A stretch of DNA of 64,000 nucleotides from a virus. Position numbers and translations under genes: made by a program. Shown one piece after another: positions 8,191 through 59,478 of this stretch (positions are counted from its first letter, which is position 1; every line of letters starts with the position of its first letter). Below the pieces are notes generated by a model. That model did no database searches and was not told where the DNA came from. It saw nothing but the letters and a program-made list of their open reading frames with translations. The stretch lies in IMG/VR virus record IMGVR_UViG_3300009165_000006. One strand, given 5' to 3'.

Positions 8191-8272
8191 GTCCCTCATG
8201 CTCTAGGACGGTCGGACTTAAGTTCAAACTTCGATATTTATTGGCATCCCAGTTGAGTTTTGAGTAGGCTTA

Positions 8273-10661: not shown

Positions 10662-10699
10662 TGTTGACTATTACCTTCGTGCAGGTGTAGGTTTTTGCT

Positions 10700-18612: not shown

Positions 18613-19220
18613 AACGAGCCTACACGGGCATAGATCTCGATGGGCAAGATCCAAGCTATTTGATTGAGCAGACGTGCTTGCTTATCGCCGGCAAGGATTA
18701 CGATAGAAACATACCTAGACTTGAAGCTTGGAGGGTTCGTCTCGAAGAAGAAAGGCGCGAGAGGAAAGCCAAGCGTGATAGTGTTGAAGCAAAAGCTCGA
18801 GCTATCCTAATGGCCCATCTCGATGAAACCCAAGTGTCTGAGTTCGAATCCTCTGGATCCTTCCACGTCCTTGGTGCCGATGGTTACACCTATCTCATCA
18901 CCTCCAGGGAACAACACAATGTGTTTCGAATCGAGGAGGGACGTCGAACCTTCGAGTACTGCATCGTGACAAGGGATTTCGTACCCCTTCAGGATCAGAT
19001 GCTGACTCAAATGCTTCTCTTGACGACCCATCCTGCGATGTTTCATCAAATCGCGAACACCTGGGAAATTAGAGAAGATGGGACCCGCATCCGCATAGCA
19101 GGGCGACTAGTTGACGTTCTTGAGAACCCAGCCGCCCAAGTCGGCTGGGTTCTCAAATCTCCTTACCGGCAAGTATCTCTCTGTACATCGGGCCTAGCAC
19201 TTTTGAGACACTCCCCTTGA
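18555..19220 (+). CDS. hypothetical protein (start uncertain)
   Basis: 221-aa ORF with TTG start. The 3' end runs through the 19120-19156 stem-loop and overlaps the ligase gene end. Confidence 0.45.
   Translation: MGIRSRSAWDLDRGGLAFVERAYTGIDLDGQDPSYLIEQTCLLIAGKDYDRNIPRLEAWRVRLEEERRERKAKRDSVEAKARAILMAHLDETQVSEFESSGSFHVLGADGYTYLITSREQHNVFRIEEGRRTFEYCIVTRDFVPLQDQMLTQMLLLTTHPAMFHQIANTWEIREDGTRIRIAGRLVDVLENPAAQVGWVLKSPYRQVSLCTSGLALLRHSP
19120..19156. terminator. perfect 15-bp stem-loop at the convergent gene junction
   Basis: TTGAGAACCCAGCCG (19120-19134), loop CCCAAGT, CGGCTGGGTTCTCAA (19142-19156). It includes the ligase stop codon. No U-tract on either strand. Confidence 0.4.
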
Positions 19221-20094
19221 TGCTCTGCTCGGTAGCCCCGAGTTCGGTCATCTCCCGTTGGCAATCCTTGGCCAGGTCTGCGCAAACCGTGGTCAAGATC
19301 AATGGCATGTCCTTCATGGTATGGGTTAATTCAACCCCTCGGTCGTTAAGGCGTCCGACGGCGTTGATGACTCGCCCCTTCGTGACGTACTTGACGATGA
19401 AGTCATCAATCGGAGAAGGACCCCTTGGAGTTTTCTCTTTGGCGGCGGATGCAACTTCAGCGAACTTGGCGCATTTATGCTTACAGATTAGCCAGTTTCC
19501 AAACACGTTTCGGAGAAGAGGATTCGATCGGATGACCACCCCCTCAGCGATGTTGTCATCCCCAAAACCATTGATCTTCCCAACCGTGCTGGGTTTTTCT
19601 AAGAGCGCATCGAAGTTTGCCTGAGTCGGCTCCCCTCGCCACACCTCGGGTATTACAGGTAGCTCCATCTTGGAGCAAAGCTCGATGAACAGGTCGTAGG
19701 TGACAAAGTTCTTGGCCACCATGATGTCGAAGGCTCTGAAAAGAGGCTCCTGACCACTTGAGTATTGAACTCCCTTGGTTTTGATGCCGGGACCGTGAGC
19801 TTCACCAAAAACGGTGACTTCAGAGAACCCGTAGGACTTGATGACCTCCATCATCCTTGTTAGAAGGTCCTTCTGGGCTTTGAACTTGTTAAGCATGCTC
19901 CCGAGCGGGAAGTTCTGCCCAAGTTGATATTCGACGTCACGTGAACCATAACCAATCTCTTCGATGCTTTTCATCCCGAGTGGGAAAAAGAGACGAAAAT
20001 TCGAACCGTGGATTTTCTCGAGGGCAACTACTTCCCTGACAGAAAAGATCTCTGGGCAGTCGGAGAGTTGAACGATTGAAGGGTACTTTTCCAT
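19153..20094 (-). CDS. Rnl2-family RNA ligase
   Basis: Motif I EKIHGSNF (T4 Rnl2 has EKIHGTNF), VFGEAHGPGIK (T4: VFGEFAGPGIQK), AEGVVIRS, ICKHKCAKFAE (T4: IKCKNSKFSE), plus a C-terminal Rnl2-like domain. Confidence 0.88.
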   Translation of the reverse strand: MEKYPSIVQLSDCPEIFSVREVVALEKIHGSNFRLFFPLGMKSIEEIGYGSRDVEYQLGQNFPLGSMLNKFKAQKDLLTRMMEVIKSYGFSEVTVFGEAHGPGIKTKGVQYSSGQEPLFRAFDIMVAKNFVTYDLFIELCSKMELPVIPEVWRGEPTQANFDALLEKPSTVGKINGFGDDNIAEGVVIRSNPLLRNVFGNWLICKHKCAKFAEVASAAKEKTPRGPSPIDDFIVKYVTKGRVINAVGRLNDRGVELTHTMKDMPLILTTVCADLAKDCQREMTELGATEQSIKGSVSKVLGPMYREILAGKEI

Positions 20095-30669: not shown

Positions 30670-33301
30670 ATGGCCGAAGGTAAGAAGGAACTAGTACTAG
30701 TAAACAACGAGTTTGCATGGGTGAAGGATCTGTCAGGGGGTATGATTTGTGTATTGCGGTCCCCACAAGGAGCCGCTATCCGTAGACTCTGTGATTGTGA
30801 TCCAGAATGCGAATAGAGAGTTCGTTCCGATCGGTGGGGACCAACTGAAGGGGCAGACTTTCGTCCAAGCTCTGGAATCCCAGTACATCATCCTACACAA
30901 TCCCGAGACTCCCGGTGCTCGACTGATGACTCGAGGGAAGAACGAAGCCATAGCTCTCCAAACCGGTAAGTGCATCGTCAAACGTGGTCCATGCGAGTTC
31001 CCTCTTTGGCCTGGTCAGCAAGCGGAGGTTGTTGACGGCCATCGCATGACTTCGGACCAGTTCCTTCGAATTCGAGTAGTGGGGGAAGTGGCTCCTGACG
31101 ACGTCAAGGCTCTTCAGTTGTTACTCAAGGAGGACTGGCTCACCTCAAAGCCCATGCCTCAGCCCGTCAAAGCCGAGGAGCCTGCGGGTCTTTTCATCAT
31201 GGCCAGTGCATCCAAGGATCCGGAACCCGTAGAGGATGAGGTCAAGCTACCCGAGCTAACCATCGGCTCTGAGTGGATTGTCCGCGGAATGAAGACCAAG
31301 TTCTTCATTCCTCCTACTGGGGTTACGGTCCTCCCTGCTAATGACCGTGTGACCATAGGGGAAGACCCTTATGTGATGAATGGCGTTCCGCTCGATGCTG
31401 ATGAGTACGTCATTCTGAAGAACCGCAGTGGTCGAATCAGCTACGTTCTAGGCCCAACAACAGTCACCCCCTGCGAAGACCAAGAGTTTCAAGAATCTAA
31501 CAGTGGGTCTCACAACCCAGTCTTCAAGGCCCAAAGTATCGACGAAAACAGCGGTGTTCTACTCCGAACCCTGTTCCCGATGACTCGCAAGACGATCCAA
31601 GAACGTATGGGCTTGGATGTTCAAGTCCAATTTACTCCAATTGCCAACCCCAATGAGGACGGAGAGGAAAGCGATAGGAGAACACCTTCCTCTGATGAGG
31701 TATTACCTCCAGGGACTCAACTTGTCGTTTGGCGGGAGAAGCGATTGGTCTTCCCGGCGGATGGTATCCAGATCATCAAGAAGTTTGAGGCCATCCACAT
31801 TCTAGCGGGTACTGCTCGGTACGTGAAGAACTCGCTGACGGGTAGAACTCGAATCGTGCAAGGGGAATGTCTATACCTAGCTGATCCCCGATGTGAGGAG
31901 TTCACCAGCCGTCGTCTGACCAAAGAGATGATCGGACTCTGGCTTCCGGGGCAAACCTTCGAGACTTACAACCCCGAACTGGTTCCCTGCATTACCGTTC
32001 CTCAGGGTACGGCCGCCATGATCCTCAAGCGAGGAATTGGCTCAAACACTCGCAAGACCATCATTGGTTATGCCACTTACTTTCTGGAGTGGGACGAGAC
32101 CCTCTGCGAGATGAAGCTCTCGACCTCGCGGGGTGGAGAAGCCAAGACCTATCAGAATGCAATCAAGATCTGCTACCTCTGGATGAAGTCCAATCGAATT
32201 AACGATGCTCTACTGGATGGACGTACCCGGGAGGATTGTGAGTTCTCGATCCAATACACCCTGACGGTTGACTTCGAGGAGGAGCACAATGACTCCTGGT
32301 TCAACGTCGATGACTATGTGTTTCTCGTCTGTGAAGAGGTTCGCTCACGTCTACGCGGAGGTCTCCTTGCTACCTCCATCAGCGAATTGTCCACAAACTA
32401 CGTCGAGATCATCCGAGACATAGTTCTCGGCATGAAGCCCAGTGTACCGCTTAAGAGTGAAGACCCACTAGCCAGGCTAGAAGCCTATACCATACCTCAC
32501 CGCCCAGGAATCGAGTTCCCGAGGTTCGGAGCTCGACTGGTCGACATCAACATCAATGCCTTCAGTATTCGAGATCCAGAACTGCAGGGGCAGCTCCGCC
32601 AACTTCAGATGGCGGGGATCAACGAGTCTGTTCGAACTCGAACAGCTCAGATCATCTTAGATGGGGCTCGAATTCGAGCGGAGATTGAGAGGAACCAAGC
32701 CACCCTTGCCACGGAGACCACCAAGTTCAAGAAGGGTCAGGAGCTTATAAACACTGAGGTGGCTGAAGAGACCACTCGTAAGAAAGGTCAGCAAGAGCAT
32801 CAAACGGCCCTTGCTTACTTGGAAGCGGAAAAGGCTCGGTTATTGGCTGAAGCAAGTAAGAACCTTGAGGTAGCTGCGAAGAATGACGAGCTATCGAAAT
32901 CTCAGCTAACTACTCAAGCTACTCTTGCAGATCTTGGACTCAAGATCACCGAGCTCAAGAAGCTGACTGATCTTGCAGTTCTCGAAGTAACTAGCAAGAA
33001 TATGGAGCTCAAACGTCAAGACGAAACCGAAAAGGTGAAGGCAACTGCCGAGGCCGCTGCTATCGTCAACAACTCGGTCTTACCGACTCTCGGGGCACAC
33101 CTGGCGGAGATTCGAGACTCCCTCGTTGCAGACAAGCTGGTTAGTGCCTTCGGTGCAGCGGCAAGCTTCCGAGGCGTGGAAGTCGTCGAGCTTGCTGCTC
33201 AGACCCTCAGCTCGTTACCCGGTTTGGGATCTGTTCTTGGTCGACTACGTCGGAATCCTTCACGGAATGAAGGCCAGGGTAGCCCTCAAGCGACTAGATA
33301 A
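30670..33301 (+). CDS. major vault protein (MVP)-like protein; N-terminal 26 codons in a different frame (+1 shift near 30746-30752)
   Basis: Track ORF 30749..33301 (GTG start). QYIILHNPE...CEFPLWPGQ parallels MVP [9 protein letters not shown]...DPFPLYPGE. The shoulder-like DDYVFLVCEEVRSRLRG and the long C-terminal coiled coil parallel the MVP shoulder and cap-helix. ATG 30670 ORF (MAEGKKELVLVNNEFAWVKDLSGGMI) aligns with the MVP N-terminus. Confidence 0.75.
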
Positions 33302-36654: not shown

Positions 36655-37135
36655 GTGCCGTTCAACAACATCTTGGACTTCGTTGAAGGCCCGATGGGGC
36701 TGAACTGGACTCTCCTGCCGGTCCAGCGCTTCATTTTGAAGCTATACTACGGGATTGAACTCAATACCTCCGAGCGTCGGATCCAGATCTTTGATCCATT
36801 TCAGGAGACGCTTCGATACAGTCTTTCTGAAGACGACTACTTGAGCTACCTCTTTGAAGAAGGTCGGTGCAACGTCCAGGACCAGTCATTGCTGCCCCGT
36901 CCTGGCCTTGTCCTAGCTGCTGGGCGCAGGACGGGGAAGAGCACCTTGGCAGAGCTAACCGCCAGCTACACGGTCATCCAGCTGCTTCAATTGGGGAACG
37001 CTCATGAGGCCTTTGGTGCTTCGAATCCCAACCTGGGAGGTTCAAGTTCTCCCCAGTGGGTTCCTACGCGAGGAGTTCATGCGGGATCCTCATCGATTCT
37101 GGACTGAGTATGGGGCTGAGTTCGCTCCCAGGTAG
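36655..37135 (+). pseudogene. terminase large subunit-like fragment (N-terminal Walker A segment plus frame-shifted short tail)
   Basis: LLPVQRFILKLYYG and Walker A LAAGRRTGKST are typical of TerL N-termini. After about 120 aa the sense continues in the +1 frame (...LPSGFLREEFMRDPHRFWTEYGAEFAPR*). No Walker B or nuclease domain is present. Confidence 0.45.
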
Positions 37136-37151
37136 CTCAGACACGTTAGGA

Positions 37152-37475
37152 TCAATCTCCGGGTTTAATAGCCTCTCTGATGCCTTCAAGAATCTGAGAC
37201 AGAATGCTGTCTTCTAAGCTTTCGAGGGCTATGAGCAACGATCCGGCGCGTTGGGCTATCAAGTGGATCATATCCTTGGCGTATCTCGCAGTCCATCCAT
37301 GCTTACCCCAAGCATCCATCGCTTCTTTAGTTCGATAGACGAAGATCTCAGACGGTTCCCCTCTATCCAATATGGCGGAACCCCATACTCTCTGTATGAC
37401 AACAACCGCGTGAGTTAGAGTGTCATTTGCACCGAATCTCGTTTGAAGAGCTACGTCACAGCCACCTGGAAGCAT
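37152..37475 (-). CDS. hypothetical protein
   Basis: 107-aa ORF, ATG start. Confidence 0.55.
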   Translation of the reverse strand: MLPGGCDVALQTRFGANDTLTHAVVVIQRVWGSAILDRGEPSEIFVYRTKEAMDAWGKHGWTARYAKDMIHLIAQRAGSLLIALESLEDSILSQILEGIREAIKPGD

Positions 37476-37573
37476 GTCACGTTCCTTGGGTCTACGGGAA
37501 TAGTTAGGACAAAAGACGACTTGTGACAGGCTGCTTAACCAAATACGTCAAGGAACCGGATAACCATTGGTTC

Positions 37574-37777
37574 TTAACACCTGTATGGATTGCCACCCTC
37601 CCCCATGTCGTCAAAACCAAGACCACAATCCGGGCAACGCCAATGCCCGCACCCACGGTGGCACTCCCGCATACGCCGATGATCACATTGCCGTAAGACG
37701 GACCAACTCTTACGTGGTCGTAGTATTCTACGTTCGTTCCCACCGAGGTCCCGAACACCTTGCTTGGTCAGCTTCAT
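37574..37777 (-). CDS. Cys/His-rich small protein (alternative: 37504..37758 in another frame)
   Basis: 67-aa ORF with CHRGCGHWRCPDCG. Overlaps an 84-aa Gly/Val-rich ORF on the same strand. I cannot decide between them. Confidence 0.3.
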   Translation of the reverse strand: MKLTKQGVRDLGGNERRILRPRKSWSVLRQCDHRRMRECHRGCGHWRCPDCGLGFDDMGEGGNPYRC

Positions 37778-37792
37778 TCCGATTGGGCTGAC

Positions 37793-38170
37793 CTATGCCA
37801 AGCCAACGAAGGGAGTCGTGAGACGATAGTTGTTTAGGGTCAGCACTTGGGCCTTTACCCCTTCCGGTTCCGCCACTACAAACCAGAATGCAACGACATC
37901 CTTGGTGAGAGGCATACTCCTGGATGCTTTCACTTGAGCCGGCTCGTCAAGGGCCTGCTTGAGTGTATCCCCACATGAACTCGTGATAGACAGGAACTTA
38001 TTTCTGTCCGTTACCAGGAAATCCCCCTTGGCGTCGGAGTCAACGTAGATAACCAAGTCGTTGCTCACCGTCTCTAGCCCTCGCTTCGCTGCTCTCAAGA
38101 GGCGGGCATTCACGTACGGTTTCAGTTCTGTTAGGTTATCTTGAGTCATTTGTCTGGCTGTTCTCCACAC
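37793..38170 (-). CDS. hypothetical protein
   Basis: 125-aa ORF, ATG start. Confidence 0.6.
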   Translation of the reverse strand: MWRTARQMTQDNLTELKPYVNARLLRAAKRGLETVSNDLVIYVDSDAKGDFLVTDRNKFLSITSSCGDTLKQALDEPAQVKASRSMPLTKDVVAFWFVVAEPEGVKAQVLTLNNYRLTTPFVGLA

Positions 38171-38222
38171 TCTGGATTATATAGGTATCCACTCCTACAG
38201 ATCAATACTTTTCAAGTCGTTC

Positions 38223-38765
38223 TCAGATCACCGGGCTACGCTTGTAGCGGCTTGGGATGGTCGTTCGGTCTTTTTTCATGGGCTCCTTCTTCCTCGAAGA
38301 TGAAGGTTCCGGTTCAGACCGTCCTCGCACCCGTTCGACAACAACCTCAAGCCTCTCTCTGATAGGCTCCGTCAGGATGGCGTCAATCAGAGTTCTTCGC
38401 TGAGGGAGATTCAATTCAGTGAGTTCTGTGCGAACCGGCATGAGCCCGACGGACTCTGGCTCAGAATTGAAATAGATATGACCTATGGCGGGGCGAATCC
38501 TTTCCCAGGGCGTCTCTTCAATTAGGTTCTGATTCCTCCTTACTACGACCTGAATGTCATTAGGATTGAATACGACGATCCCACTCTCTATTTGGTTTCG
38601 AAGGCTATTCCAGAAGGTGGCACCCAACTCGCGAGCCAGGTCGAACGGATCCTCGAGTTCACCAGCGCTCCAGGATCGCATAACCTCATCGGTCATTGTG
38701 AATTCAGAGGAGGCTAGGTCCCCACCTTCCCCAATGACTCGAACAAGAACCTGTACCGTTGGCAT
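38223..38765 (-). CDS. hypothetical protein with C-terminal RYxR tail
   Basis: Track ORF 38223..38792 (TTG start). ATG at 38765 preferred. Ends ...TIPSRYKRSPVI*. Confidence 0.6.
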   Translation of the reverse strand: MPTVQVLVRVIGEGGDLASSEFTMTDEVMRSWSAGELEDPFDLARELGATFWNSLRNQIESGIVVFNPNDIQVVVRRNQNLIEETPWERIRPAIGHIYFNSEPESVGLMPVRTELTELNLPQRRTLIDAILTEPIRERLEVVVERVRGRSEPEPSSSRKKEPMKKDRTTIPSRYKRSPVI

Positions 38766-38785
38766 AATCTTAATGAAGCTTACTT

Positions 38786-38833
38786 CAATCAACTTCCGGT
38801 GTAAAGACCTTCATGGATAGGCTGAGCTGATCG
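38786..38833 (+). repeat. 48-nt duplicated 5' region, copy 1 (copy 2 at 42978..43026)
   Basis: CAATCAACTTCCGGTGTAAAGACC..CATGGATA(A)GGCTGAGCTGATCG. This copy lacks one A, so its ATG opens only a 5-codon ORF. Confidence 0.7.
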
Positions 38834-39009
38834 AGTATCGATCTATACGACGATAGACGAGTAGCGGTTCATCGATTGGGGGATGGTGTTCAGTGACCGG
38901 CATCCAGCCTTTTCTTTCGGGTTCAGGCTTCTCTTTCATGGGGGATCCTCCGGTGGCAGGGATACACCGGTTGACTTTTGGAGGTGATCCCCGGATAATG
39001 GGGGTCATT

Positions 39010-39204
39010 ATGGTCACCATTACGAAAGAACACCTTGAGAATTGGAAGACTTCCGGCTTTATCCTAAGTGAACTTTTCCCGATGGGAGTGATGGGAGTGT
39101 TTGATGCTCCGATTTCTTCTGAAATCAAGGTTCGGATTCTCCTACGGGAGGAGATTCTTGGTAGCAGGGGTTTGATCTATGTAACGGCGAGGGCGGTACG
39201 CTGA
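39010..39204 (+). pseudogene. unit A, N-terminal part (interrupted)
   Basis: MVTITKEHLENWKTSGF...GLIYVTARAVR*. Homology to the other units resumes in the +1 frame (YAEGGEIPKEELEKAAEAA) and again in the frame of 39267..40016. Confidence 0.55.
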
Positions 39205-39266
39205 AGGGGGAGAGATCCCGAAGGAAGAGTTAGAGAAGGCTGCTGAGGCTGCTTCTATGGCAGCCG

Positions 39267-40016
39267 TTGAAGCTGTTAGGGGGAATGCTTGGGCTTCTTC
39301 TATTGACTGCTTGGGCTGCTTCTATGGCTGCTTGGGCTAATGCTAGAGTTACTTGGGATGCTACTAATGCCTGGAATAATGCTATCACTGCTGCCCGAGC
39401 CACTGCTTGGATGGATTTTTCTAGTGAGGAGGAAGAGAAAGAAGCCCAACTCACTGATTGCCGAGAGTGGTTGCTGAGGGTTCCTGTACCAACGAATAAT
39501 GGGGGTGATATGATAGCCAATAAGAAAGAGATCATTCCGATGGGGCTTATGGGATTGTTTGAAATCCCTATCTCCCCTATTAATACCCTATTGATACTCT
39601 TACACGAGGAGGTTCTTGGGAGGAGGGGAATGGTCTATGTGGCGGCGAAGGCTGCCCGTCGGGCCTGTACGAAGACAGAATTGTCTCATTCTGATAGCCT
39701 TCGAGCTCTAGATCTATGCGACCGATACGTTGAAGGGGAAGAGATCCCGAAAGAAGAGCTAGCGAGAGCTGCTAATGTGGCTGATGTGGCGGCTCTGTCT
39801 GCTTGTGATGCTACTTGGGGGGCGGCATGGGCTACTTGTAAGGCGGTAAGGGCTGCTAATGCCGCTTCGTCTTTGTCCCCTGTCAGGACTGATGCTTGGG
39901 CCGCTGTGGAGGCAGCTGCTGTTAGAGCCACTTCTAATGAGGAAGGAGAAAGGGAAGAGGAGAGAAAGTCCCAACTCGCTGATTGTCGAGAGTGGTTGCT
40001 GAAAGGGAACACATAA
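39267..40016 (+). CDS. unit A C-terminal part fused in frame to unit B
   Basis: Contains two ..QL(T/A)DCREWLL.. ends. Unit B could start independently at ATG 39510 (MIANKKEIIPMGLMGLFE...). Unit B ends LLKGNT* and lacks the RYQRIMRSL tail (deletion). Confidence 0.5.
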   Translation: MKLLGGMLGLLLLTAWAASMAAWANARVTWDATNAWNNAITAARATAWMDFSSEEEEKEAQLTDCREWLLRVPVPTNNGGDMIANKKEIIPMGLMGLFEIPISPINTLLILLHEEVLGRRGMVYVAAKAARRACTKTELSHSDSLRALDLCDRYVEGEEIPKEELARAANVADVAALSACDATWGAAWATCKAVRAANAASSLSPVRTDAWAAVEAAAVRATSNEEGEREEERKSQLADCREWLLKGNT

Positions 40017-40028
40017 GATGAGGTCGTT

Positions 40029-40565
40029 GTGATTACAATTACGAGTGAACTTCTCGAAAGTTGGGAGGTTTCCGACTTTATCCCAAAAGAACTACTTCCG
40101 ATGGAGGTGATGAGGTTGTTCGAAGCCCCGATTCCCTCTAGGGACAAGGTTCGGGTTCTTTTACGTGAGGAAGTTCTTGGGCGGAGGGGTTTGGTCTATG
40201 TAGCGGCCAGGGCGGCACGCCGAGCCCGTACAGTGACAGGTTGGTACCATTCTGATAGTCTTCGAGCTCTAGATCTATGTGATCGGTACGCTGCTGGAGA
40301 AGATATCCAGAAAGAAGAGTTAGAGAGAGCTATTAAGGCGGCTGAGGTGGCTTCTTCTGAAGCTGCTTCTTCTTGGGCTGCTAGGGCTGCTGCTAATGCT
40401 GCTAGAGCGATTGCTGTTCCTAGGGCTGCTTGGACTGCTACTTCTAATGAAGAGATAGAGAGAAGGTCCCAACTTACTGATTGCCGAGATTGGCTTCTAA
40501 GGGGAAACCCACAAGAAAGAGCCCCCATACTCACAAGGTATCAGCGGATAATGAGGTCCTTGTGA
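40029..40565 (+). CDS. unit C, apparently intact family member
   Basis: 178-aa ORF with GTG start. Full set of family blocks and the TRYQRIMRSL* tail. Confidence 0.65.
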   Translation: MITITSELLESWEVSDFIPKELLPMEVMRLFEAPIPSRDKVRVLLREEVLGRRGLVYVAARAARRARTVTGWYHSDSLRALDLCDRYAAGEDIQKEELERAIKAAEVASSEAASSWAARAAANAARAIAVPRAAWTATSNEEIERRSQLTDCRDWLLRGNPQERAPILTRYQRIMRSL

Positions 40566-41185
40566 TAACCATTACGAGTGAACTCCTTGAGAGGTGGGAA
40601 AATTCTGACCTTATCCCGAACGAACAACTCCCGATGGGGGTGATGGATGTGTTCGGAGCATCGATCCCCTCTAAGAACAAGGTTCGGCTTCTCCTACACG
40701 AGGAGGTTCTTGGGAGGAGGGGAATGGTCTATGTGGCGGCTCGGGCTGCGCGCCGGGCCTGTACGAAGACAGAAGGGTCTCATCCTGGTAGCCTTCAAGC
40801 CTTAGATCTATGCGACCGATACGCTGAGGGGGAAGAGATCCCGAAAGAAGAGCTAGAGAGCGCTTCTAATGCGGCTGACGAAGCGGCTAGGGTTGTTTCT
40901 GAGGCTGCTTCTACTTGAGCTGCTTTTGACGCTTCTGTTTCTGATGTTAGAGATGTTTGGCCAGCGAGAGCTGCTGCTTTTGCTGCTGGAGCTGCTTTGG
41001 GTACTTGGACTGTTTCTGATGCTTGGGATGCTACTACTTGGGCTTGGGATACTACTGATGGGGTTAGTGATGAAGAAAGAAACTCCCAACTCGCCGATTG
41101 CCGCGAGTGGTTGCTGAGGAATTCCCCACAAGAAAAGGCTCCAGTACTTACTCGGTACCAACGGATAATGAGGTCGCTATCCTAA
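40562..41185 (+). pseudogene. unit D, interrupted by a single in-frame TGA (40916-40918)
   Basis: GTG at 40562 overlaps unit C's stop. ORFs 40481..40918 and 40997..41185 are in the same frame. The TGA aligns with a TGG (Trp) codon of unit C (TCT TCT TGG GCT GCT versus TCT ACT TGA GCT GCT). Confidence 0.6.
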
Positions 41186-41353
41186 CCGTAGGACGGGAGC
41201 ACCTTCAAGGCCAGACTCGAGCTAGTCCAGCCCAGATCAGGTTCAGTAGAGTGACCACAATGAGGCACTCAATAGCCGCTTCTTTCGGGAACTTGAGGAC
41301 GGCACAGGTCATCAAGCAGATGACCCAGGAGGTGAGGATCCTCGTGACCACGG

Positions 41354-41650
41354 TCATCCTACGAGTCTGAAGGTCTTCCAGCACCTGACGCAACCGTTGC
41401 TCTCAACGTCATCAAGCTGGTCGAGGGCATTGACCTCAACCTGGACGGCTCGGCCCAGGATAAGTTGCACGACGGATTGGACCTCAAGGATTGAGAGGTC
41501 TTGGTAGCTCGTAAGAGGCGTTCCTACCTTGACGAGGTCAGCCACGACCTCTACGCGAGTGATGTGCCAGCCCAGAGTTGGATCGTTCGGGAGCGTGTAC
41601 TGCACCCTCGCACGTTGGAAACCCTCCATCCTGACGACCTCGATGGTCAT
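41354..41650 (-). CDS. hypothetical protein
   Basis: 98-aa ORF. ATG overlaps the stop of a 14-codon upstream ORF (ATGA). Confidence 0.55.
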   Translation of the reverse strand: MTIEVVRMEGFQRARVQYTLPNDPTLGWHITRVEVVADLVKVGTPLTSYQDLSILEVQSVVQLILGRAVQVEVNALDQLDDVESNGCVRCWKTFRLVG

Positions 41651-41691
41651 GGGGACTCACCTATCAGGATGAGAGAGTACGTCTTTGTCAT
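41647..41691 (-). CDS. 14-codon upstream ORF (MTKTYSLILIGESP)
   Basis: ATG at 41691 sits 5 nt downstream of the CGCGTAATAC motif, the same architecture as full-length genes. TGA overlaps the ATG of 41354..41650. Confidence 0.3.
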   Translation of the reverse strand: MTKTYSLILIGESP

Positions 41692-41696
41692 ACTGG

Positions 41697-41706
41697 GTAT
41701 TACGCG
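41697..41706 (-). promoter_or_regulatory. CGCGTAATAC start-proximal motif
   Basis: Minus strand reads CGCGTAATAC CCAGT ATG (ATG at 41691). The motif contains the TAA stop of 41700..41942. Confidence 0.4.
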
Positions 41707-41942
41707 GCAGGCTTGGATTTCTCAACCACTCTCTTGGGCACCTTGGGGGCGTTCGCGAGCCAAGCCTCAACCTTAATCCGGAAGTCAATCCAAGCCTCAG
41801 TGTTACCCAGAGTCCAATTCTCGGTAGCGTGGTCAATGGTGCGTGCCATATGGATCAGGTCGATGACCGTTGGAAGGAGGAGCTTTCTATTGAGCTTGGC
41901 TGAGATCTCCTCAGCGGGCTTCAATCGTTTTAGGCGTTTCAT
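41700..41942 (-). CDS. hypothetical protein
   Basis: 80-aa ORF. Overlapping + strand ORFs look weaker. Confidence 0.5.
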   Translation of the reverse strand: MKRLKRLKPAEEISAKLNRKLLLPTVIDLIHMARTIDHATENWTLGNTEAWIDFRIKVEAWLANAPKVPKRVVEKSKPAA

Positions 41943-41945
41943 TCG

Positions 41946-42170
41946 TTACTTTTTCAGTAGCTCGGGGGGAATGTTCTCGCAGGAGACTTGGAAGGCCGAT
42001 TGATTCCATAGGCCCATGCAAATCTTTGGGGCTCGCGGATCTCGAAAGTACGTGGGTTGATTCCAAGTCGTTCTCTGCCGGTGCCCAACCCAAAGAAGCA
42101 ACGAAGTTGACCACAAGATCGCTGCTACGACCAGAGCTATGCAACCTATCTGCTTGGAACTTAGAGCCAT
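41946..42170 (-). CDS. small membrane protein
   Basis: 74-aa ORF with helix IGCIALVVAAILWSTSLLLWV. Confidence 0.45.
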   Translation of the reverse strand: MALSSKQIGCIALVVAAILWSTSLLLWVGHRQRTTWNQPTYFRDPRAPKICMGLWNQSAFQVSCENIPPELLKK

Positions 42171-42736
42171 TGGTTTACCTCAGGATCCCAGTACTTCTTC
42201 GACACTGGGCATACTTTGGACACTAGCTGACGCATCTTGGTGTGGTCAACTTTATTCAGCGTTTCGATCCCTATGCAAAGAGCCGCAGTCATCACTCGAC
42301 GATGGCTGACGGCCCCAAAGGTCTGCCTCCACACGTAGTCAACCCCCTCGAGCAACCCCTGCGTGGAAGTACACTCGAGCACCAGGACGAAGTTGGAACA
42401 GATTCGACCCCTCACCTTTCGGGGCGCCCACTTCTCGATTAGCTGCTTAAGTGTACTCTGGGGCTTCCTCTTGAGTATTTGAATGCCTATAACTATCGCG
42501 GTTTTAGCCAACCTGTGTTTGGTAACGGTGCATTTGATTCTACCCTCACCCTTGTCCTTAGTTGAGGCCAAAAGTGCCATCATGATCTCAGCACTCTCTG
42601 GACTACCAACCAAGTTGAGTACCGAATTGCGACGAATTGCCAAAAGAAACCCCTCGAGATGCCAAATCCCCGAAGCAACGTAGGTTATGGCATTTGACTG
42701 TGCGAGAGGGTACACGAGCTTTTTGGCCCATGACAA
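42161..42736 (-). CDS. hypothetical protein
   Basis: 191-aa ORF, ATG start. Confidence 0.6.
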   Translation of the reverse strand: MSWAKKLVYPLAQSNAITYVASGIWHLEGFLLAIRRNSVLNLVGSPESAEIMMALLASTKDKGEGRIKCTVTKHRLAKTAIVIGIQILKRKPQSTLKQLIEKWAPRKVRGRICSNFVLVLECTSTQGLLEGVDYVWRQTFGAVSHRRVMTAALCIGIETLNKVDHTKMRQLVSKVCPVSKKYWDPEVNQWL

Positions 42737-42977
42737 GGAAGAAATGCTAAAAAGAACGTGGATTTATCGGCGGTGCTGGGTCAAGCAGAATGAGGTGGTT
42801 GAGTTTTTAGGGGCTTTCAGCTACGAGGCTCGATTACTGCTCGAAAAACTCGTTACAATCGTTCGTTGTGCGTCCCGGATTAGGGACTTCGTTCCGACGA
42901 GGACCCGCAAGATGGGTTGTCTACCGGGCCGGTAAAAGGGCCAGGGTCACTTTTGGCATGATCTTGATGGTTTACCC

Positions 42978-43026
42978 CAATCAACTTCCGGTGTAAAGAC
43001 CCACATGGATAAGGCTGAGCTGATCG
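42978..43026 (+). repeat. 48-nt duplicated 5' region, copy 2
   Basis: Same sequence as 38786..38833. Here it carries the functional ATG of 43005..43244. Confidence 0.7.
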
Positions 43027-43244
43027 CAAGCTACAAGTTCGAGAAGGGTCGTCAAGTCATGGTTGAGAAGGCCCAAGAGATTCAGAAGCGAAAGCTCTCT
43101 AGTATCTGCAAAGAACTACTCGAGAAATACGGCAAAGGTCCACATGACCTTGGAGATGGGAACTCCGAAGGGTACAACATCATCCAAAAAGGCGATACTT
43201 GTTACTTGAGTCAAGTTCGAGCCAAGAAGGCTGCTTCCGGTTGA
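43005..43244 (+). CDS. hypothetical protein
   Basis: 79-aa ORF, ATG start inside the duplicated block. Confidence 0.55.
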   Translation: MDKAELIASYKFEKGRQVMVEKAQEIQKRKLSSICKELLEKYGKGPHDLGDGNSEGYNIIQKGDTCYLSQVRAKKAASG

Positions 43245-45249: not shown

Positions 45250-45520
45250 TGAACCTCGATAAGAACTATCGCACGCCTTGACTCCAGTGACGAACTGTGA
45301 ACCGCTTCAACCACTCTTACGCGCGAGCTTGTCTGAATCTCAACTAAATTGAGTATAGCCTTCCAAAAGACCGTTCTGTGAAACTTATTCAAAGTTGCTC
45401 ATAGGAGAACTCCGATGTTCACTTCCTGCTTCAACGAGACATGACTCGTAGGCCGAAGGGTTCTCCTTCGTTCCGCCGCTAGAGGACTCTCCACAGGCTT
45501 TTTAGCGCCGAAGGCGCCTA
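45250..45520 (-). ncRNA. predicted omega RNA (reRNA) region of the TnpB element
   Basis: By analogy with IS200/605 TnpB loci, the guide RNA scaffold overlaps the tnpB 3' end and the right end. The 154-nt non-coding stretch after the stop contains the hairpin CTCAA-CTAAA-TTGAG (45339-45353). Boundaries are not determinable by eye. Confidence 0.35.
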
Positions 45521-46643
45521 GGTTCCTCGGGAACTCCGAGTACCTTTCCAAATTCTTCGCCGCATTCTCATCTCGATCATGAATAGCTCCACATCCTTCA
45601 CAAACCCACTCTCTCACAGAAAGAGCCAGCTGCGGCCGTTTAAGGCCGCAGCTGGTACATATCTTCGAGGATGGGAACCATCGATCAGCTACTTCTAGCT
45701 TAGATCCATACCAAGTGGTCTTGTAGGAAAGTAGCCTCTTACTTTCAAACCACCCTTGGTCCAAGATCGACCGAGAAAGGTGAGGATTCTTACTCATTCC
45801 ACGAATACCAAGGTCTTCCACAACGATGGCTGACTTGGTTTTCGCCAGCCCCGTTGTGAACTTATGAAGGAAATCCCTTCGAACGTTTGCTACTCGTGAG
45901 TGAATCCTCGCTAATCTTTGAGCTGATTTCCTCCTATTTGACGAACCCTTACGCTTCCTCGAATGAGAGCGTTGAGCCCTTCTTAACCGACTTAACGCTT
46001 GTTTCAATGGATTCGGGGCATGTATCTTCGTACAGGCCCCGTCCGAAGAGACCGTAGCGAAAGTAAGAATCCCTAGATCTACCCCAGCTTTTGGTCCTTG
46101 GATAGGAATAGGATCCGTCACGACCTCAACGGTATTGACGGATACGAACCATCGATCTGCTACCCTCGAAATCGTAGCTGAAAGGATCTCCCCACTAATC
46201 CTGCCGTTGATCTTCTCTTTGGTTCGAATAGTCCCAAGCCTAGGGAGCTTAATATACCTAGTTTGTGGCTCAATTGAACCATAGAGACGGAAGGAATCCT
46301 TTGATTTATGCTTCTTTTTGAACTTTGGGAAGCCAACTCCTTCTGATCTTCTGGACCAGAAAGCTTTGAAAGCTTTGTCAAGATCACGAAGAGCTTCCTG
46401 AGGGGCACACTTGGAAACCTCGTACATCCAAGGGAAGTCAGGGCCCTTGCGGGCGTTGAGGTCCCGATGTTCAGCGATGGCGTTGGTGAACTTCTCCTTA
46501 CCTTCTTGGGTTCGGAAGCGTTCGATCCTCCTTTGGAGGGACCAATTCCAAGCGAAGCGAGCCGTTCCGGCATGCTTCGCCAAGAACGTCCGAACCCGAT
46601 TGTTCGGATCTAACTCGAACTTATACGCCTTCCGAAGTTCCAT
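45399..46643 (-). CDS. tnpB: TnpB (IS200/IS605 OrfB-family RNA-guided endonuclease)
   Basis: MELRKAYKFELDPN...FLAKHAGTARFAWNW (OrfB N-terminus), RuvC-I GVDLGILTFAT, RuvC-II AIVVEDLGIRGM, Zn finger CTSCG...CEGCG, RuvC-III HDRDENAAKNL. Confidence 0.92.
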   Translation of the reverse strand: MELRKAYKFELDPNNRVRTFLAKHAGTARFAWNWSLQRRIERFRTQEGKEKFTNAIAEHRDLNARKGPDFPWMYEVSKCAPQEALRDLDKAFKAFWSRRSEGVGFPKFKKKHKSKDSFRLYGSIEPQTRYIKLPRLGTIRTKEKINGRISGEILSATISRVADRWFVSVNTVEVVTDPIPIQGPKAGVDLGILTFATVSSDGACTKIHAPNPLKQALSRLRRAQRSHSRKRKGSSNRRKSAQRLARIHSRVANVRRDFLHKFTTGLAKTKSAIVVEDLGIRGMSKNPHLSRSILDQGWFESKRLLSYKTTWYGSKLEVADRWFPSSKICTSCGLKRPQLALSVREWVCEGCGAIHDRDENAAKNLERYSEFPRNLGAFGAKKPVESPLAAERRRTLRPTSHVSLKQEVNIGVLL

Positions 46644-46706
46644 GAAGAATGGGTATCTTACACCAAGTTCAGAAAAAGTTATCGAAATTCAAGTTTGAAT
46701 AGGGTC

Positions 46707-46747
46707 GATCAACTTTGATCAGGTTTGGAGTCAACTGCTGCGACCCT
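46707..46747 (+). repeat. 41-nt element, copy B (copy A at 20599..20639)
   Basis: See copy A. Here it lies on the + strand between two minus-strand genes, just upstream of tnpB. Confidence 0.7.
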
Positions 46748-46842
46748 CGGAGGAGCCCCCAGCTCCTCCAGCTCCATTTGCTCGATAGGTTTTTCAGGAT
46801 CCCGCCTCCAAACTACATGGAATCGGAGGCTAGGAGTCAGAC

Positions 46843-52607: not shown

Positions 52608-53590
52608 TGGAGACAACTCGATACATTTCGGTGGTCAGGGCAGTTCAACCGATCGCGCATCACAAGGGTAGTATCGGAAATCACGCAACGATCATGCGTG
52701 CAGCTGTAAGGCTTCCTGGCGGAGAGATCGCAGACGTGCCAGAGGGCACTGGTAACGCAGTTAGAAATCGATTACGCCGAGCTGCCGCGATCTGTTCATT
52801 GGACGCAGCTGGAATTCTGGGGGATCCCCAACTCGAACGTGGAGCGATGCGGCTGCTGTTCAACGGCGGAATGCTCACTGGAAAGGGTGATGGGACCACG
52901 ATCAACATCGATCGATGGCGCGAGCTTGTGACGCTATTCCCGTTTCTTGGGATCCTTGGGGGTTGCATCGACAATCGTACCCAAGGCGGACAACTCAATG
53001 TTGACGCACTGAAGCTCATCTGCGAGGAAAACATGCACTCGCTAAATCCATGGACGCGACAGTGGCTCAAGGATAACAATGAAGGGATCTGCGAAAGCTC
53101 CTACCTACTTGAGAAAGTTCAACGGGTGAATATGGACCCGGAGATCCTTCCCGAGAACCTGAAACTGCTTTCGGAGGGTGCGAGGTTACAAGTCTATAAC
53201 AAGCTACTAGCACAGGGTAAAGCTCACGAGGAGGGGAACGCGATCGAGGCCGCAAAAGTCAAGAGCGACATGATGCCGCATACGTTCGAGCGAATCATTC
53301 GCGGGTCATTGTTTCAACTGTCGTTCTTGTTGAGGTCTTATAACGAGCTTGAGCGAGACGCTTTCGAGTACGCCTACTCCTGCCTATTGAACAACTTCCG
53401 TTTCGGAGGAAAACAAGCATCAGAACACGGGGAACTCGAATTCCTTGCGGGTGCCAGGGTTCACTTCAAACAATACACAGGAGAGCTCGACATCGGTGAG
53501 CGAAAAGGAACCGGTGATCTGTTCCGAGCGCACGTTACCGATCACAAGGAACAGCTGGTGAACTGGTTACGGCACGAGGTAGCAGCGTGA
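52607..53590 (+). CDS. Csf2/Cas7-like RAMP backbone subunit
   Basis: Three blocks as in Csf2/Cas7: VPEGTGNAVRNRLRR (..GNslRg.lR), LLFNGGMLTGKG (L.sGG.l) and LFPFLGILGG (..P...LFGG). TAATG overlap with the upstream gene. Confidence 0.6.
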   Translation: METTRYISVVRAVQPIAHHKGSIGNHATIMRAAVRLPGGEIADVPEGTGNAVRNRLRRAAAICSLDAAGILGDPQLERGAMRLLFNGGMLTGKGDGTTINIDRWRELVTLFPFLGILGGCIDNRTQGGQLNVDALKLICEENMHSLNPWTRQWLKDNNEGICESSYLLEKVQRVNMDPEILPENLKLLSEGARLQVYNKLLAQGKAHEEGNAIEAAKVKSDMMPHTFERIIRGSLFQLSFLLRSYNELERDAFEYAYSCLLNNFRFGGKQASEHGELEFLAGARVHFKQYTGELDIGERKGTGDLFRAHVTDHKEQLVNWLRHEVAA

Positions 53591-54240
53591 ACTACGAGCC
53601 AATCAAGGTCAGCTGCAAGCTTGCCGAGGGGTTCGTAATGCGAACCCCTACCGTGTTGGATTCACTATTGGCCGCAGTGATAGCAATGCGTGAGCAGTTG
53701 CCTACTCCGATATCCGAGGACGAAATCAAAGAGATCCCAGTACCCATTGACGAAGCTGCTGGGATTCGACTGTGCTCATCGGCCATGTTTGAGATAGAGG
53801 AGACATTCGGCTCATTTCGAACACGACGCCCACCAATCGAAGAATACTGCCACTTTGGAAAGCGTGGTGGTTCCGTATCGATTGCTAGTGGCCCCGACAA
53901 GCTCTATATGATGGAGTATGACTACCAGTTCGCAGTTGACGACAAAGTGACATGGTTTGCATTGGGAGACATTGTCAGTGTACACAACTTACTGACGGAT
54001 GTATTCTACCTCGGCAAACATCGCTCAATCGGCAAAGGGCGGATCATTGAAGGCTCATGGAAGGTTGAAAGCTGTAAACCCTGGGGTGAAGGGTTTCCGG
54101 TGGTTCATAACGGCACTCCGAAGCGTCCCTTGCCGTTAGGTTGGCCTGGCGTGGCCACGACAACCAGGACCGGTTACGCAACGTTACGACCCCCCTATTG
54201 GATGTACTCTCGTGAGGAAGCCTGCTTCCTCCCAGGATAG
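53587..54240 (+). CDS. Csf3/Cas5-like RAMP subunit
   Basis: N-terminus ..RTPTVLDSLLAAVIA (LDgLL-type block) and glycine-rich loop LGKHRSIGKGRI. 217 aa. GTGA overlap with the Cas7-like gene. Confidence 0.5.
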   Translation: MNYEPIKVSCKLAEGFVMRTPTVLDSLLAAVIAMREQLPTPISEDEIKEIPVPIDEAAGIRLCSSAMFEIEETFGSFRTRRPPIEEYCHFGKRGGSVSIASGPDKLYMMEYDYQFAVDDKVTWFALGDIVSVHNLLTDVFYLGKHRSIGKGRIIEGSWKVESCKPWGEGFPVVHNGTPKRPLPLGWPGVATTTRTGYATLRPPYWMYSREEACFLPG

Positions 54241-55701
54241 ATGAAAGCTCTAGCTTGCACGCTCGACACATGGGATGCCTTCGCAAGGGCCACCGGAAGA
54301 ACTGAGACCACCGGTCTCACGTTTCCCCTACGAATACTCGAGATTATCGGAAAGCCCTACGGACTAGAGCTCGAATACGCGAACAAACTGAACCGCCATG
54401 ACGCAGTGTTCATAGCGGTTCACGACTTTAGTTCGATGCTGTCCCTTGGAAAGGCGATGCAGAAGCTGAAATTGCCGCTACTTGCCAAAGACCGCGACCG
54501 AAGTCACCCGCTCGTATGGATGGGCGGACAAGGTACACGCAATCCGCTACCTATTGCCGATATTGCTGACTTGATAGTGCTTGGGGATGCAGAGCTCTCG
54601 CTGCCTCAATTACTCCAAATATGGGAGCGAAATGGGAACAGTAGAGAGTTCCTGGTGGGAGCGTCTACTGTCTCTGGGGTATTCGTTCCTTCGATCCACA
54701 ACGAAAATGAGGTGACCCTGAAAATGGGTTGGTCACCGGATATACGAACTTCACTTCAAAGCAGAAGCCTACCAATGGAACAGCATGCCAGAATCGAGCT
54801 CTCGCGTGGATGCAAGAGCAAGTGCTCATTCTGCGGACTCGGATGGATGGGTCCAGTTCGACATAACACCTTGGACGACGTACGGGATGCTATCCGAGGA
54901 GTGCCTTCGGTCCACCTGCAGGCTTGCGATGCCGAAGCTTACCCGGACATCGTTCGGTTGCGTGAGTGGATGCGCGAGAGAGGAATCAAAGACACCGGGT
55001 GTACCTCACGTCTCGATTCTAATTACGATGCTAGGAGCGAATTTCTATTCGACAAGTTGTTCAATTTCGGAATCGAGGCTGTGACCGAGCGTGTCCGCCG
55101 CAAAATCGGCAAGGCCAGACTAACGAACGACTTCATCGTTGAGGCTATGTGCGGGCTATACGAGAGACAGAAAACGCGGAAGGGTGAAGCCTGTGAGAAG
55201 ACCAATTGGCACATGATCTCTGGACTTCCGGGGGAGTTGGTATCTGAAACCGCGGAACTGGCGCAGACAATCCGAAGGCTCGATGCGACAATGCTGGAAC
55301 GGAGAATCACCGGGCAGCTAACGATCCGATGGCAACCGTTACTACCCTGTCCTGGGACACCACTGCAGTGGTGTCCCATTGGGCCGGATTGCGAGCCGTG
55401 GAGTAAGGCCTTGGCCAGAAACATCCGCAAAACGTACTGTCTGAAGCTAGAACATGGTTCCGGGAGACAGGAACGAAAGCACGCCCTGACCTGTATACTG
55501 ATGCGGTCAGGGCGTGTGGGGGCAAAGCTGATCGCACTTGAGTCAAAGTCTGCGGTTACCCCAGTTGCCGCGGTCGAGCTTACCGGGACGACTACCGGTA
55601 AGCTCGACCTTAGTGGTCCGCTTCCATGGGATTTCGTGCATGGTTACTACCCGCGAGGGGTGCTCGAAAAGGCCTACAAAAAGACCATACAATGCACGTA
55701 G
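54241..55701 (+). CDS. radical SAM enzyme with N-terminal B12-binding-like domain
   Basis: IELSRGCKSKCSFCGLGW gives CX3CX2C at 54811-54834 (aa 191-198). N-terminal VWMGGQGTRNP...DLIVLGDAELSLPQLL resembles the class B (cobalamin-domain) rSAM fold. The start abuts the Cas5-like stop. Confidence 0.8.
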   Translation: MKALACTLDTWDAFARATGRTETTGLTFPLRILEIIGKPYGLELEYANKLNRHDAVFIAVHDFSSMLSLGKAMQKLKLPLLAKDRDRSHPLVWMGGQGTRNPLPIADIADLIVLGDAELSLPQLLQIWERNGNSREFLVGASTVSGVFVPSIHNENEVTLKMGWSPDIRTSLQSRSLPMEQHARIELSRGCKSKCSFCGLGWMGPVRHNTLDDVRDAIRGVPSVHLQACDAEAYPDIVRLREWMRERGIKDTGCTSRLDSNYDARSEFLFDKLFNFGIEAVTERVRRKIGKARLTNDFIVEAMCGLYERQKTRKGEACEKTNWHMISGLPGELVSETAELAQTIRRLDATMLERRITGQLTIRWQPLLPCPGTPLQWCPIGPDCEPWSKALARNIRKTYCLKLEHGSGRQERKHALTCILMRSGRVGAKLIALESKSAVTPVAAVELTGTTTGKLDLSGPLPWDFVHGYYPRGVLEKAYKKTIQCT

Positions 55702-58122: not shown

Positions 58123-59478
58123 ATGAAAGTCCCTGAAAGAGTCCGTTTTATCTGCAGTATCTTGAATCAAGCAGGCTTTGAAGCCTGGGTTGTTGGTGGC
58201 GCAGTGCGCGACTCTATACTTGGCCGAGAAGCTCACGACTTCGATGTGGCCACTAATGCTCTCCCTGATAGAGTCGTCAGGCTGTTCAGTCGTGTCATTG
58301 AGACCGGTATCCAACATGGAACGGTCACGGTCATGATTGAAAACGAGGGCTTCGAGGTCACCACCTTCCGTGGTGAAGGTACCTACTCGGATGGGCGCCA
58401 CCCAGATAGTGTCAGGTTCTTGGACTCTATCATCGAGGACTTGGCTCGTCGAGACTTCACAATGAATGCGGTCGCGTACGACCCCTTGACAGGGAAGTTC
58501 TGTGACCCCTTCGGTGGGGTGCAGGATATCGAATGCATGCTCATCCGAGCTGTAGGATCTCCTGAAGAAAGATTCCAAGAAGACGGCTTGAGAGTCATGC
58601 GAGCTATTCGTTTCATGAGTACTCTGGGATTCTCCATTGAACCACGTACTCTCGAAGGTATGGCGAAGATTGATTCCCTAGCCTCCCTAGCCAAGGTCAG
58701 CGTTGAACGGGTCAGGGACGAGCTCTTTAGGATCATGGGCTCGAAAGCACCCTCTCGTTCAATGAATGCCATAGTTCATACCGGAGTCTTGGACGTGATC
58801 CTACTAGAGATGCGCCCGATGGTTGGGTGTACTCAAAATCGGTACCATTCCTACGACGTTTGGACCCACACGATGGTTACTCTCGACCATTGTCCGGATG
58901 ACAACCCTATCCTCAGGTTTGGGGCTCTCTTTCACGATATCGCAAAGCCCGAGGTGAAAGGGGTTCACCCAGTCCATGGGGATGCCACTTTCTACGATCA
59001 TGAGCTGGTGGGGGCAAAGAAGACCGATGAGATCTTGACTCGGTTGAGGTTCTCAACCGAAGATCGGGAGAAGATTGTTCACTTGGTTGAGCACCACTTC
59101 ATCCGGTACGAACACGAGTGGTCGAATTCAGCGCTTCGTCGTTGGGTTCGGAAGGTTGGATTGGAGAGCGTCCCCACTTTCTGCACTCTCGCCCGGGCGG
59201 ACATCGCCGGGAAAGGGCCTATAGCCACAGTTGAATCCGAGAATTCAGTCATTGATGACCTGGAGAATCGGGTATCCAGACTGCAATTGACCGAAGTGAT
59301 CCCAACGTCAATCAAGGTGCTTGCCATCGACGGGAACGACGTGATGGCTCACTTGGGTATAGGACCAGGCCCTAGGATAGGAAGAGTGCTAGAAAGCCTT
59401 CTAGACGCCGTAACGGAGGACCCAGAACTCAACACCCGGGAGAAGCTCTTGGAGCTTGCCAGGGAAGTTCAAGTGTGA
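58123..59478 (+). CDS. cca: CCA-adding enzyme / tRNA nucleotidyltransferase with HD domain
   Basis: VVGGAVRDSILGREAHDFDVAT (GG.vRD...G....D.D), ERV.DEL, and a C-terminal HD domain (LFHDIAKP...HH). Confidence 0.9.
   Translation: MKVPERVRFICSILNQAGFEAWVVGGAVRDSILGREAHDFDVATNALPDRVVRLFSRVIETGIQHGTVTVMIENEGFEVTTFRGEGTYSDGRHPDSVRFLDSIIEDLARRDFTMNAVAYDPLTGKFCDPFGGVQDIECMLIRAVGSPEERFQEDGLRVMRAIRFMSTLGFSIEPRTLEGMAKIDSLASLAKVSVERVRDELFRIMGSKAPSRSMNAIVHTGVLDVILLEMRPMVGCTQNRYHSYDVWTHTMVTLDHCPDDNPILRFGALFHDIAKPEVKGVHPVHGDATFYDHELVGAKKTDEILTRLRFSTEDREKIVHLVEHHFIRYEHEWSNSALRRWVRKVGLESVPTFCTLARADIAGKGPIATVESENSVIDDLENRVSRLQLTEVIPTSIKVLAIDGNDVMAHLGIGPGPRIGRVLESLLDAVTEDPELNTREKLLELAREVQV

Follow-up and report, generated by a model that had tools for sequence, protein, structure and literature searches.

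Is an in-frame TGA codon, found in a small gene at a position where its neighboring paralogs carry TGG, a sign of special decoding or the mark of an ordinary broken copy? We asked this of a 64,000 nt stretch of DNA (hereafter, the window) from the IMG/VR virus record IMGVR_UViG_3300009165_000006. On its plus strand, at positions 39010-41185, four related Ala/Trp-rich genes (units A, B, C, and D) lie head to tail, and unit D is interrupted by a TGA at 40916-40918. A preliminary description, made from the sequence alone, had read the locus as a decaying gene family under rapid birth-and-death evolution. We are fairly confident that the cluster is a real tandem array under birth-and-death evolution with gene conversion, and that the TGA is an ordinary, fairly recent TGG-to-TGA nonsense mutation under the standard genetic code; this is a joint judgment that also covers the anatomy of the units. 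The locus as a whole is probably best explained as a tandem cluster of paralogs encoding small (approximately 180-200 aa), almost all-helical proteins that form an Imm5-like branch.

Four head-to-tail units

Direct-repeat families with start-to-start spacings of 529, 561, and 533 nt, together with a four-way DNA alignment with a mean column identity of 70%, bore out the proposal of four paralogous head-to-tail units of 0.5-0.6 kb each. The five protein blocks named previously were all present and kept the stated order in every unit: ITITSELLE, LLHEEVLGRRG/VYVAARAARRA, LRALDLCDRY, QLxDCREWL, and TRYQRIMRSL. The array had been placed at 38786-41185. This extent holds from 39010 onward, whereas positions 38786-39009 are occupied by the 5' end of a minus-strand gene, intergenic sequence, and a tail remnant. 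The remnant (approximately 38990-39009, plus strand) lies directly 5' of the ATG of unit A, reads ..PRIMGVI (compare ..QRIMRSL), and matches the tail/start junctions of units C and D both in the DNA alignment and in translation.

Unit A (39010-39509, plus strand) is a pseudogene that begins at ATG 39010 and runs through frames 1, 2, and 0. Its division into three frames, reported earlier, is explained by two lesions. After a 71 nt deletion between 39193 and 39194 the reading frame changes and meets a TGA at 39202-39204, and a 22 nt tandem duplication at 39286-39338 causes the second frame shift. The tail of unit A is shortened, and there is an in-frame continuation into unit B.

Unit B (39510-40016, plus strand) is an uninterrupted open reading frame (ORF) of 168 aa from ATG 39510 to TAA 40014-40016. 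The loss of its tail, which had been recognized, amounts to approximately 35 nt; a further 42 nt (14 codons) are missing from the N-terminal part. The annotation pipeline of the Joint Genome Institute (JGI) places the start at ATG 39411, which yields the 201-aa protein P0013. Unit C (40029-40565, plus strand) is a full-length gene of 178 aa from GTG 40029 to TGA 40563-40565, and its protein is the same as P0001 except for the translation of the start codon. The statement that only unit C is intact is correct with respect to the canonical architecture, but unit B is also an open frame, and the tail that it lacks is likewise absent from several of its homologs elsewhere.

Unit D (40562-41185, plus strand) comprises 207 codons from GTG 40562 to TAA 41183-41185 with a single in-frame stop, the TGA at 40916-40918 on the plus strand, where a G-to-A change at 40918 converted TGG to TGA at a Trp position. 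It also carries a 3 nt deletion after 40946, and nearly invariant residues have been replaced (Trp72 to Gly and Arg79 to Gln).

Stop/start overlaps of the GTGA type had been described between the units; such an overlap is present at the C/D junction and absent from the other junctions. The tail codons ..ATG AGG TCC TTG TGA put GAGG a few bases 5' of the next GTG, and thus double as the ribosome-binding region of the following unit. Minus-strand genes flank the array on both sides, so the array is probably its own transcription unit, with translational coupling between units C and D. A candidate promoter (38971-38999, plus strand; TTGACT, 17 nt, GATAAT; 10 of 12 consensus matches) lies upstream of unit A, and the consensus scan detected no more promoter-like sites in the array region than in shuffled sequence.

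Two further features of the region concern its composition. The strongest positive GC skew in the window (0.11-0.12) and a negative AT skew were found at 38000-42000, because the coding strand of the variable regions is rich in GCT, TGG, and GTT. In addition, the GCT-rich variable region gives rise to a Leu-rich ORF in a different frame, and the JGI pipeline made a gene call of it at window 40869-41117, L002 759-1007, and L001 10904-11155. In contig L001 this call displaced the true frame, so that an intact fifth unit (10597-11222) was left unannotated and is missing from protein databases.

Reproduction of the array in independent assemblies

Short-read assemblers struggle with tandem repeats of 0.5-0.6 kb, and contigs from other samples break within the array. 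Both observations would fit the suspicion that the array, its broken units, or the TGA arose by faulty repeat assembly or sequencing error. Three independent contigs from two other samples speak against it. Contig L014 (sample 3300027956) was identical (100%) to window 36670-39715, L006 (sample 3300027675) was 100% identical to window 39583-40776, and positions 1-3063 of L002 (sample 3300027956) were 100% identical to window 40111-43173. These contigs overlap each other and reproduce the A-B, B-C, C-D, and D-flank junctions as well as every lesion. Moreover, the units differ from one another by 24-30% at the DNA level (only approximately 70-76% identity), so collapse or expansion of the repeats by the assembler is unlikely. 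We consider the chance of an artifact to be close to negligible, and the assembly error raised in the preliminary description as a possible source of the TGA and of the units can be set aside.

The in-frame TGA of unit D

The preliminary description had aligned the TGA at 40916-40918 with a Trp codon of unit C. The aligned codon was TGG in units A, B, and C, and also in the near-identical variable cassettes of unit 5 of L001 and unit 3 of contig L003; the related protein P0016 reads 'STWAAF' at this position. In-frame TGA codons were also found at the conserved Trp of 'GWDHP' in L003 and L005 and at an Arg codon (CGA to TGA) in unit 2 of L001.

As an alternative to decay, it had been suggested that the TGA is read through or decoded as Trp. 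Under this explanation, the TGA of unit D and of related units would be decoded, either because TGA is recoded to Trp (in the whole genome or only in particular genes) or because programmed readthrough is efficient, and full-length D protein would be made. That two of the three in-frame stops of the family fall exactly at Trp positions, and that all three are TGA, speaks for decoding; however, the third TGA replaces Arg, and in these Trp-rich genes more one-step stop codons can arise from TGG than from any other codon, which makes TGG to TGA the expected commonest route to a stop. Similarly, coding potential is high on both sides of the unit D TGA and all conserved motifs are retained downstream of it, but unit D is also altered at nearly invariant residues, as described above.

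The use of TGA elsewhere in the window was that of an ordinary stop. TGA was the commonest terminator, ending 33 of the 63 long ORFs, unit C among them (TGA followed by TAA), and coding potential, measured as the codon-usage signal, fell after TGA just as it did after TAA and TAG. A same-frame split-gene pattern was absent for every stop type. No tRNA genes were found in the window, and neither the window nor 11 related loci contained a tRNA with the anticodon UCA; the one suppressor tRNA of the related contigs has the anticodon CUA and reads UAG. The RNA following the TGA (40913-40985) folded with z = -1.4, and 19 of 200 shuffled sequences folded as well, so no significant structure was detected.

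Specific forms of recoding fared no better. Recoding of TGA to Trp or Gly (genetic codes 4 and 25, recoded phages) was rejected on the basis of the 33 terminated ORFs, the missing UCA tRNA, and the lack of split genes. Selenocysteine insertion was rejected because the region after the UGA gave no signal for a hairpin of the selenocysteine insertion sequence (SECIS) type (z = -1.4) and the window had no Rfam match. For TAG, the window gave no indication of recoding. Taken together, these results make decoding of the TGA very unlikely and argue that it is a plain nonsense mutation, which would leave unit D a recent pseudogene or, at most, the source of a 118-aa fragment.

One observation fits less comfortably with a plain mutation. 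All three nonsense codons of the family are TGA, and the probability of this under neutral mutation is approximately 0.06, which is suggestive at most; a slight selective tolerance of a leaky UGA is conceivable on this basis. Relaxed selection on unit D could not be demonstrated: the ratio of nonsynonymous to synonymous substitution rates (dN/dS) of its N-terminal domain was 0.31, like that of other units, and the D-specific changes after the TGA were too few for a test.

Evolution of the cluster

Comparison with related contigs showed that copy number differs between otherwise similar genomes. Contig L007 is syntenic with window 29645-51400 at 90-99% identity and carries a single gene, P0002, in place of the four units; the single-copy state was also present in a second sample (L008). 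Elsewhere, a genome carries at least eight copies in four loci, including a five-unit array (contigs 2 and 3, sample 3300081805). Across arrays, roughly a third to a half of the units are truncated or disrupted.

The units are also mosaic. The closest relative of unit D changes four times along the gene: the 5' part is closest to unit 2 of L003 (92-96% identity), the middle to unit B of the window (86-91%), the variable cassette to unit 5 of L001 and unit 3 of L003 (89-99%), and the tail to the L007 gene (96%). The middle of the L007 gene, in turn, shares 91-100% identity with the gene of a different, single-copy locus (L009). In P0016, the N-terminal half resembles unit B and the cassette resembles unit D; P0016 also has a 4 nt deletion that is present in three contigs. 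Over the N-terminal domain, the mean dN/dS was 0.33 with a synonymous divergence (dS) of 0.3-1.0, indicating that the paralogs are old and that this domain is under purifying selection.

The copy-number difference in a syntenic genome, the lesions in related arrays, the mosaic units, and the purifying selection on the N-terminal domain support the birth-and-death evolution proposed previously. Unequal crossing-over and segmental gene conversion between copies, both within and between loci, probably explain why copy number differs between near-identical genomes and why the units are mosaic. Individual copies are lost through ordinary mutation, that is, by deletion, slippage duplication, or nonsense. 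The tandem multigene families of large phages and mobile elements show the same features, namely head-to-tail paralogs, GTGA coupling, copy-number change between strains, and a mixture of intact and decayed copies. No specific difference from this category was found; the category covers the evolutionary mode and not the function.

The same mosaicism could be the work of a programmed cassette system, in which unit C is expressed and the damaged units A, B, and D serve as silent donors of the hypervariable Ala/Trp hairpin, comparable to antigenic variation of pilin or Vls. Conserved flanks do surround a variable central cassette, copies of the D-type cassette on different scaffolds are 96-99% identical, and broken copies are kept unchanged in several samples. 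The lesions, however, are varied and unsystematic (deletion, slippage, and nonsense), three of the five units of L001 are full-length, single-copy loci exist, and no recombinase or dedicated machinery adjoins the array. The three assemblies of the window array are 100% identical over it with no sign of frequent switching, which argues against fast programmed switching. We regard such a system as unlikely, and birth-and-death evolution with gene conversion remains our preferred reading. A diversity-generating retroelement was also considered and rejected: no reverse transcriptase domain was present in the 87 ORFs of the window, and the differences between cassettes were not confined to adenines.

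Family, remote homology, and predicted fold

A word-indexed search of 5.8 billion proteins recovered 18 close relatives, all of them metagenomic, and no Pfam domain was detected in any of the 18. Pattern scans of 185,579 GTDB species genomes and of IMG/VR found no relatives of the family, and a blastn search of the array region against cultured phages gave no match. Scans of the units with PADLOC and NCBIfam returned nothing meaningful. In the PHROG scan, unit C matched only phrog_1793 (head scaffolding), weakly (E 1.6e-4) and in its low-complexity Ala-rich part.

Searching with a profile of the family was more productive. An exhaustive search of 1.84 billion representatives returned 152 proteins at E<=1e-3, which are similar in length and cover most of the profile. 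They share a layout of an N-terminal helical part, a variable region rich in Ala, Trp, Tyr, Asp, and Arg, and, at the C-terminus, an 'ER..Q...L' helix; an Ala/Trp-rich region therefore characterizes the superfamily as a whole. Among 104 of the profile-search relatives, 24 matched Imm5_like, 11 matched Imm5, and 92 matched phrog_18326 (best E 4.5e-33). Four proteins, P0038, P0047, P0064, and P0080, connect the family to Imm5_like most directly: they matched the family profile with E values of 1e-7 to 7e-6 and scored 32-48 bits against Imm5_like, above the Pfam gathering cut-off of 25 bits. When the family was compared with these four Imm5_like proteins using hhalign, the probability was 99.2% (E 1e-19, 155 columns); against all 104 relatives it was 99.8% (E 1e-29).

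The AlphaFold2 model of unit C was almost entirely alpha-helical, with nine helices and a mean predicted local distance difference test (pLDDT) score of 76.7, which was high for residues 1-110 and low in the variable hairpin. Structure searches with this model returned only generic helical matches, and neither profile, that of the family or that of the superfamily, had a credible match among PDB sequences; a solved structure of the family is therefore lacking for comparison.

On the strength of the profile comparisons, the family is probably a lineage-specific, divergent branch of a large superfamily that includes phrog_18326, Imm5_like, and Imm5. The chief gain of the analysis is the link that these comparisons draw between phrog_18326, a widespread phage family of unknown function, and the Imm5-like predicted immunity proteins, together with the clear example of cassette-like mosaic evolution described above.

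Comparison with known systems and proposed function

Comparative genomics defined Imm5 as a predicted immunity protein of mostly alpha-helical structure (PMC3482391). Its links are to DYW deaminase and CdiA-CT toxins, and it often occurs in polyimmunity loci or polyimmunity proteins without an adjacent toxin (PMC3482391). Imm5_like (PF21805) and Imm5 (PF14423) are predicted to confer immunity in polymorphic toxin systems (Zhang et al. 2012, PMC3482391). The window family resembles these proteins in its similar size, its mostly alpha-helical character, the same order of conserved helices, the Ala-rich variable region, and the C-terminal 'ER..Q...L' helix. The tandem immunity-type copies without an adjacent toxin also recall polyimmunity loci. 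The N-terminal 'W.PCY' motif of the relatives, however, is missing from the window family, and the array has no toxin, secretion system, or cassette context, in a setting that looks more like a phage or mobile element than like a conflict locus of bacteria. Immunity is a predicted function even for Imm5.

Members of phrog_18326, such as gp36 of Burkholderia phage Bcep176 and AF_046 of Pseudomonas phage AF, are likewise small proteins of phage early or accessory regions. They are present in single copy at both cultured-phage loci examined, in contrast to the many copies per genome seen here.

The preliminary description had called such rapid evolution typical of host-interaction or immunity-evasion families. 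Remote homology, both to a phage family and to the predicted immunity proteins Imm5_like and Imm5, lends this suggestion indirect support. The predicted proteins have a conserved helical scaffold at the N-terminus, then a hypervariable helical hairpin rich in Ala and Trp, a conserved C-terminal 'QLxDCREWL' helix, and an optional basic tail. They might bind and neutralize a variable partner, for example, a toxin or a defense effector. The N-terminal bundle would act as the scaffold and the hypervariable hairpin as the specificity determinant, and several paralogs would widen the range, as has been proposed for polyimmunity loci. Remote homology and layout make a binder or neutralizer a possible function, which we put forward tentatively.

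A quite different role, for example, in virion structure or scaffolding, could be read from the weak PHROG match of unit C, since scaffolding proteins commonly have Ala-rich helices. However, this match is confined to the low-complexity part and is not common to the relatives (the great majority of which match phrog_18326), the relatives in cultured phages lie in early regions and not in structural modules, and a structural protein with at least eight variable copies per genome would be out of the ordinary. We judge a role other than binder or immunity protein to be very improbable. A more elaborate version of the binder proposal pictures the cluster as a repertoire of cassettes that a large phage exchanges. 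Gene conversion among the eight or more copies in several loci, with damaged units as donors, would re-assort the hairpin and shift the set of binders against toxins or defense effectors of hosts and rivals, and a leaky UGA at Trp codons would permit some of the broken copies to be expressed at a low level. We consider this improbable.

Several results weigh against the Imm5-like interpretation and the function proposed from it. Units B, C, and D (the last with its TGA translated as Trp) had no Pfam match to Imm5_like or Imm5, even at E<=1, and unit C had no direct match to phrog_18326 at E<=1e-3; membership in the superfamily thus rests on profile-level homology. No toxin gene was recognized near the array or in the window (Pfam, 87 ORFs). 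The literature yielded no superfamily member with a tested function, and no experimental work on Imm5_like or Imm5 was found. Finally, capsid, portal, terminase, or other phage structural genes were not seen in the window, so a phage origin is unproven.

Genomic setting and source

Only 22 Pfam families were matched across the 87 ORFs of the window. They included two TnpB transposases, an MVP-shoulder domain, radical SAM, a CCA-adding enzyme, an RNA ligase, an ADP-ribosylglycohydrolase, and ThiF, and no ribosomal or other core genes were seen. Related contigs carry Ro60, an amber-suppressor tRNA, dCTP deaminase, peptide deformylase, and DUF551, a domain that occurs in phage proteins. Superfamily members are found in early regions of cultured phages (gp36 of Bcep176 and AF_046 of phage AF) and in a 44-kb phage-like contig. 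The source is most likely a large phage or another mobile element. The CCA-adding enzyme is 49-51% identical to those of Sandaracinaceae and Myxococcales metagenome-assembled genomes (MAGs), its closest relatives in GTDB, and these relatives in Myxococcota MAGs hint at a possible host lineage.

The RNA ligase and CCA-adding enzyme genes (window 19153-20094, minus strand, and 58123-59478, plus strand), together with Ro60 (L001 2984-4570, minus strand), suggest an RNA/tRNA repair and quality-control module. The full-length amber-suppressor tRNA, with anticodon CUA and an encoded CCA end, is located at L001 5307-5377 (minus strand) and L003 1037-1107 (minus strand). It scored 55.6 bits against Rfam and lies approximately 0.7 kb from the Ro60 (TROVE/vWA) gene. 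Its presence may indicate that TAG is suppressed or recoded in some parts of this genome. At window 53587-55701, a 217-aa ORF ends with TAG at 54238-54240 and is followed in the same frame by the ATG of the radical SAM gene at 54241. Given the CUA tRNA, fusion by readthrough of this TAG is conceivable; it may equally be chance adjacency.

An 850-aa protein with a major vault protein (MVP) shoulder domain (Pfam E 3e-9) is encoded at window 30749-33301 (L007 1436-4069). Its gene is 98.6% identical to that of L007 at the DNA level and is unusual for a prokaryotic or phage genome.

Transposon positions vary between near-identical genomes, as shown by differing TnpB and IS607 sites. The IS605-family TnpB element at window 45371-46748 occupies another site in L007 (17207-18581, 92% identity), and L007 contains short extra fragments that resemble one end of this element (1228-1414 and 8152-8269). 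Contig L002 follows the window up to 43173 and diverges immediately beyond it; a few hundred bases on, it carries an IS607-type pair of a serine recombinase and TnpB (L002 3064-5347).

Significance

For the reading of unusual codons, the lesson of unit D is that an in-frame TGA at a Trp position of a Trp-rich gene can be explained without special decoding. For the family, this analysis provides a first account, evolutionary and structural, of what is probably a divergent and expanded branch of the phrog_18326 phage family. If the proteins do neutralize toxins or defense effectors, the changes in copy number and the shuffling of cassettes would be the trace of an arms race in a large phage or mobile element that has not been cultured.

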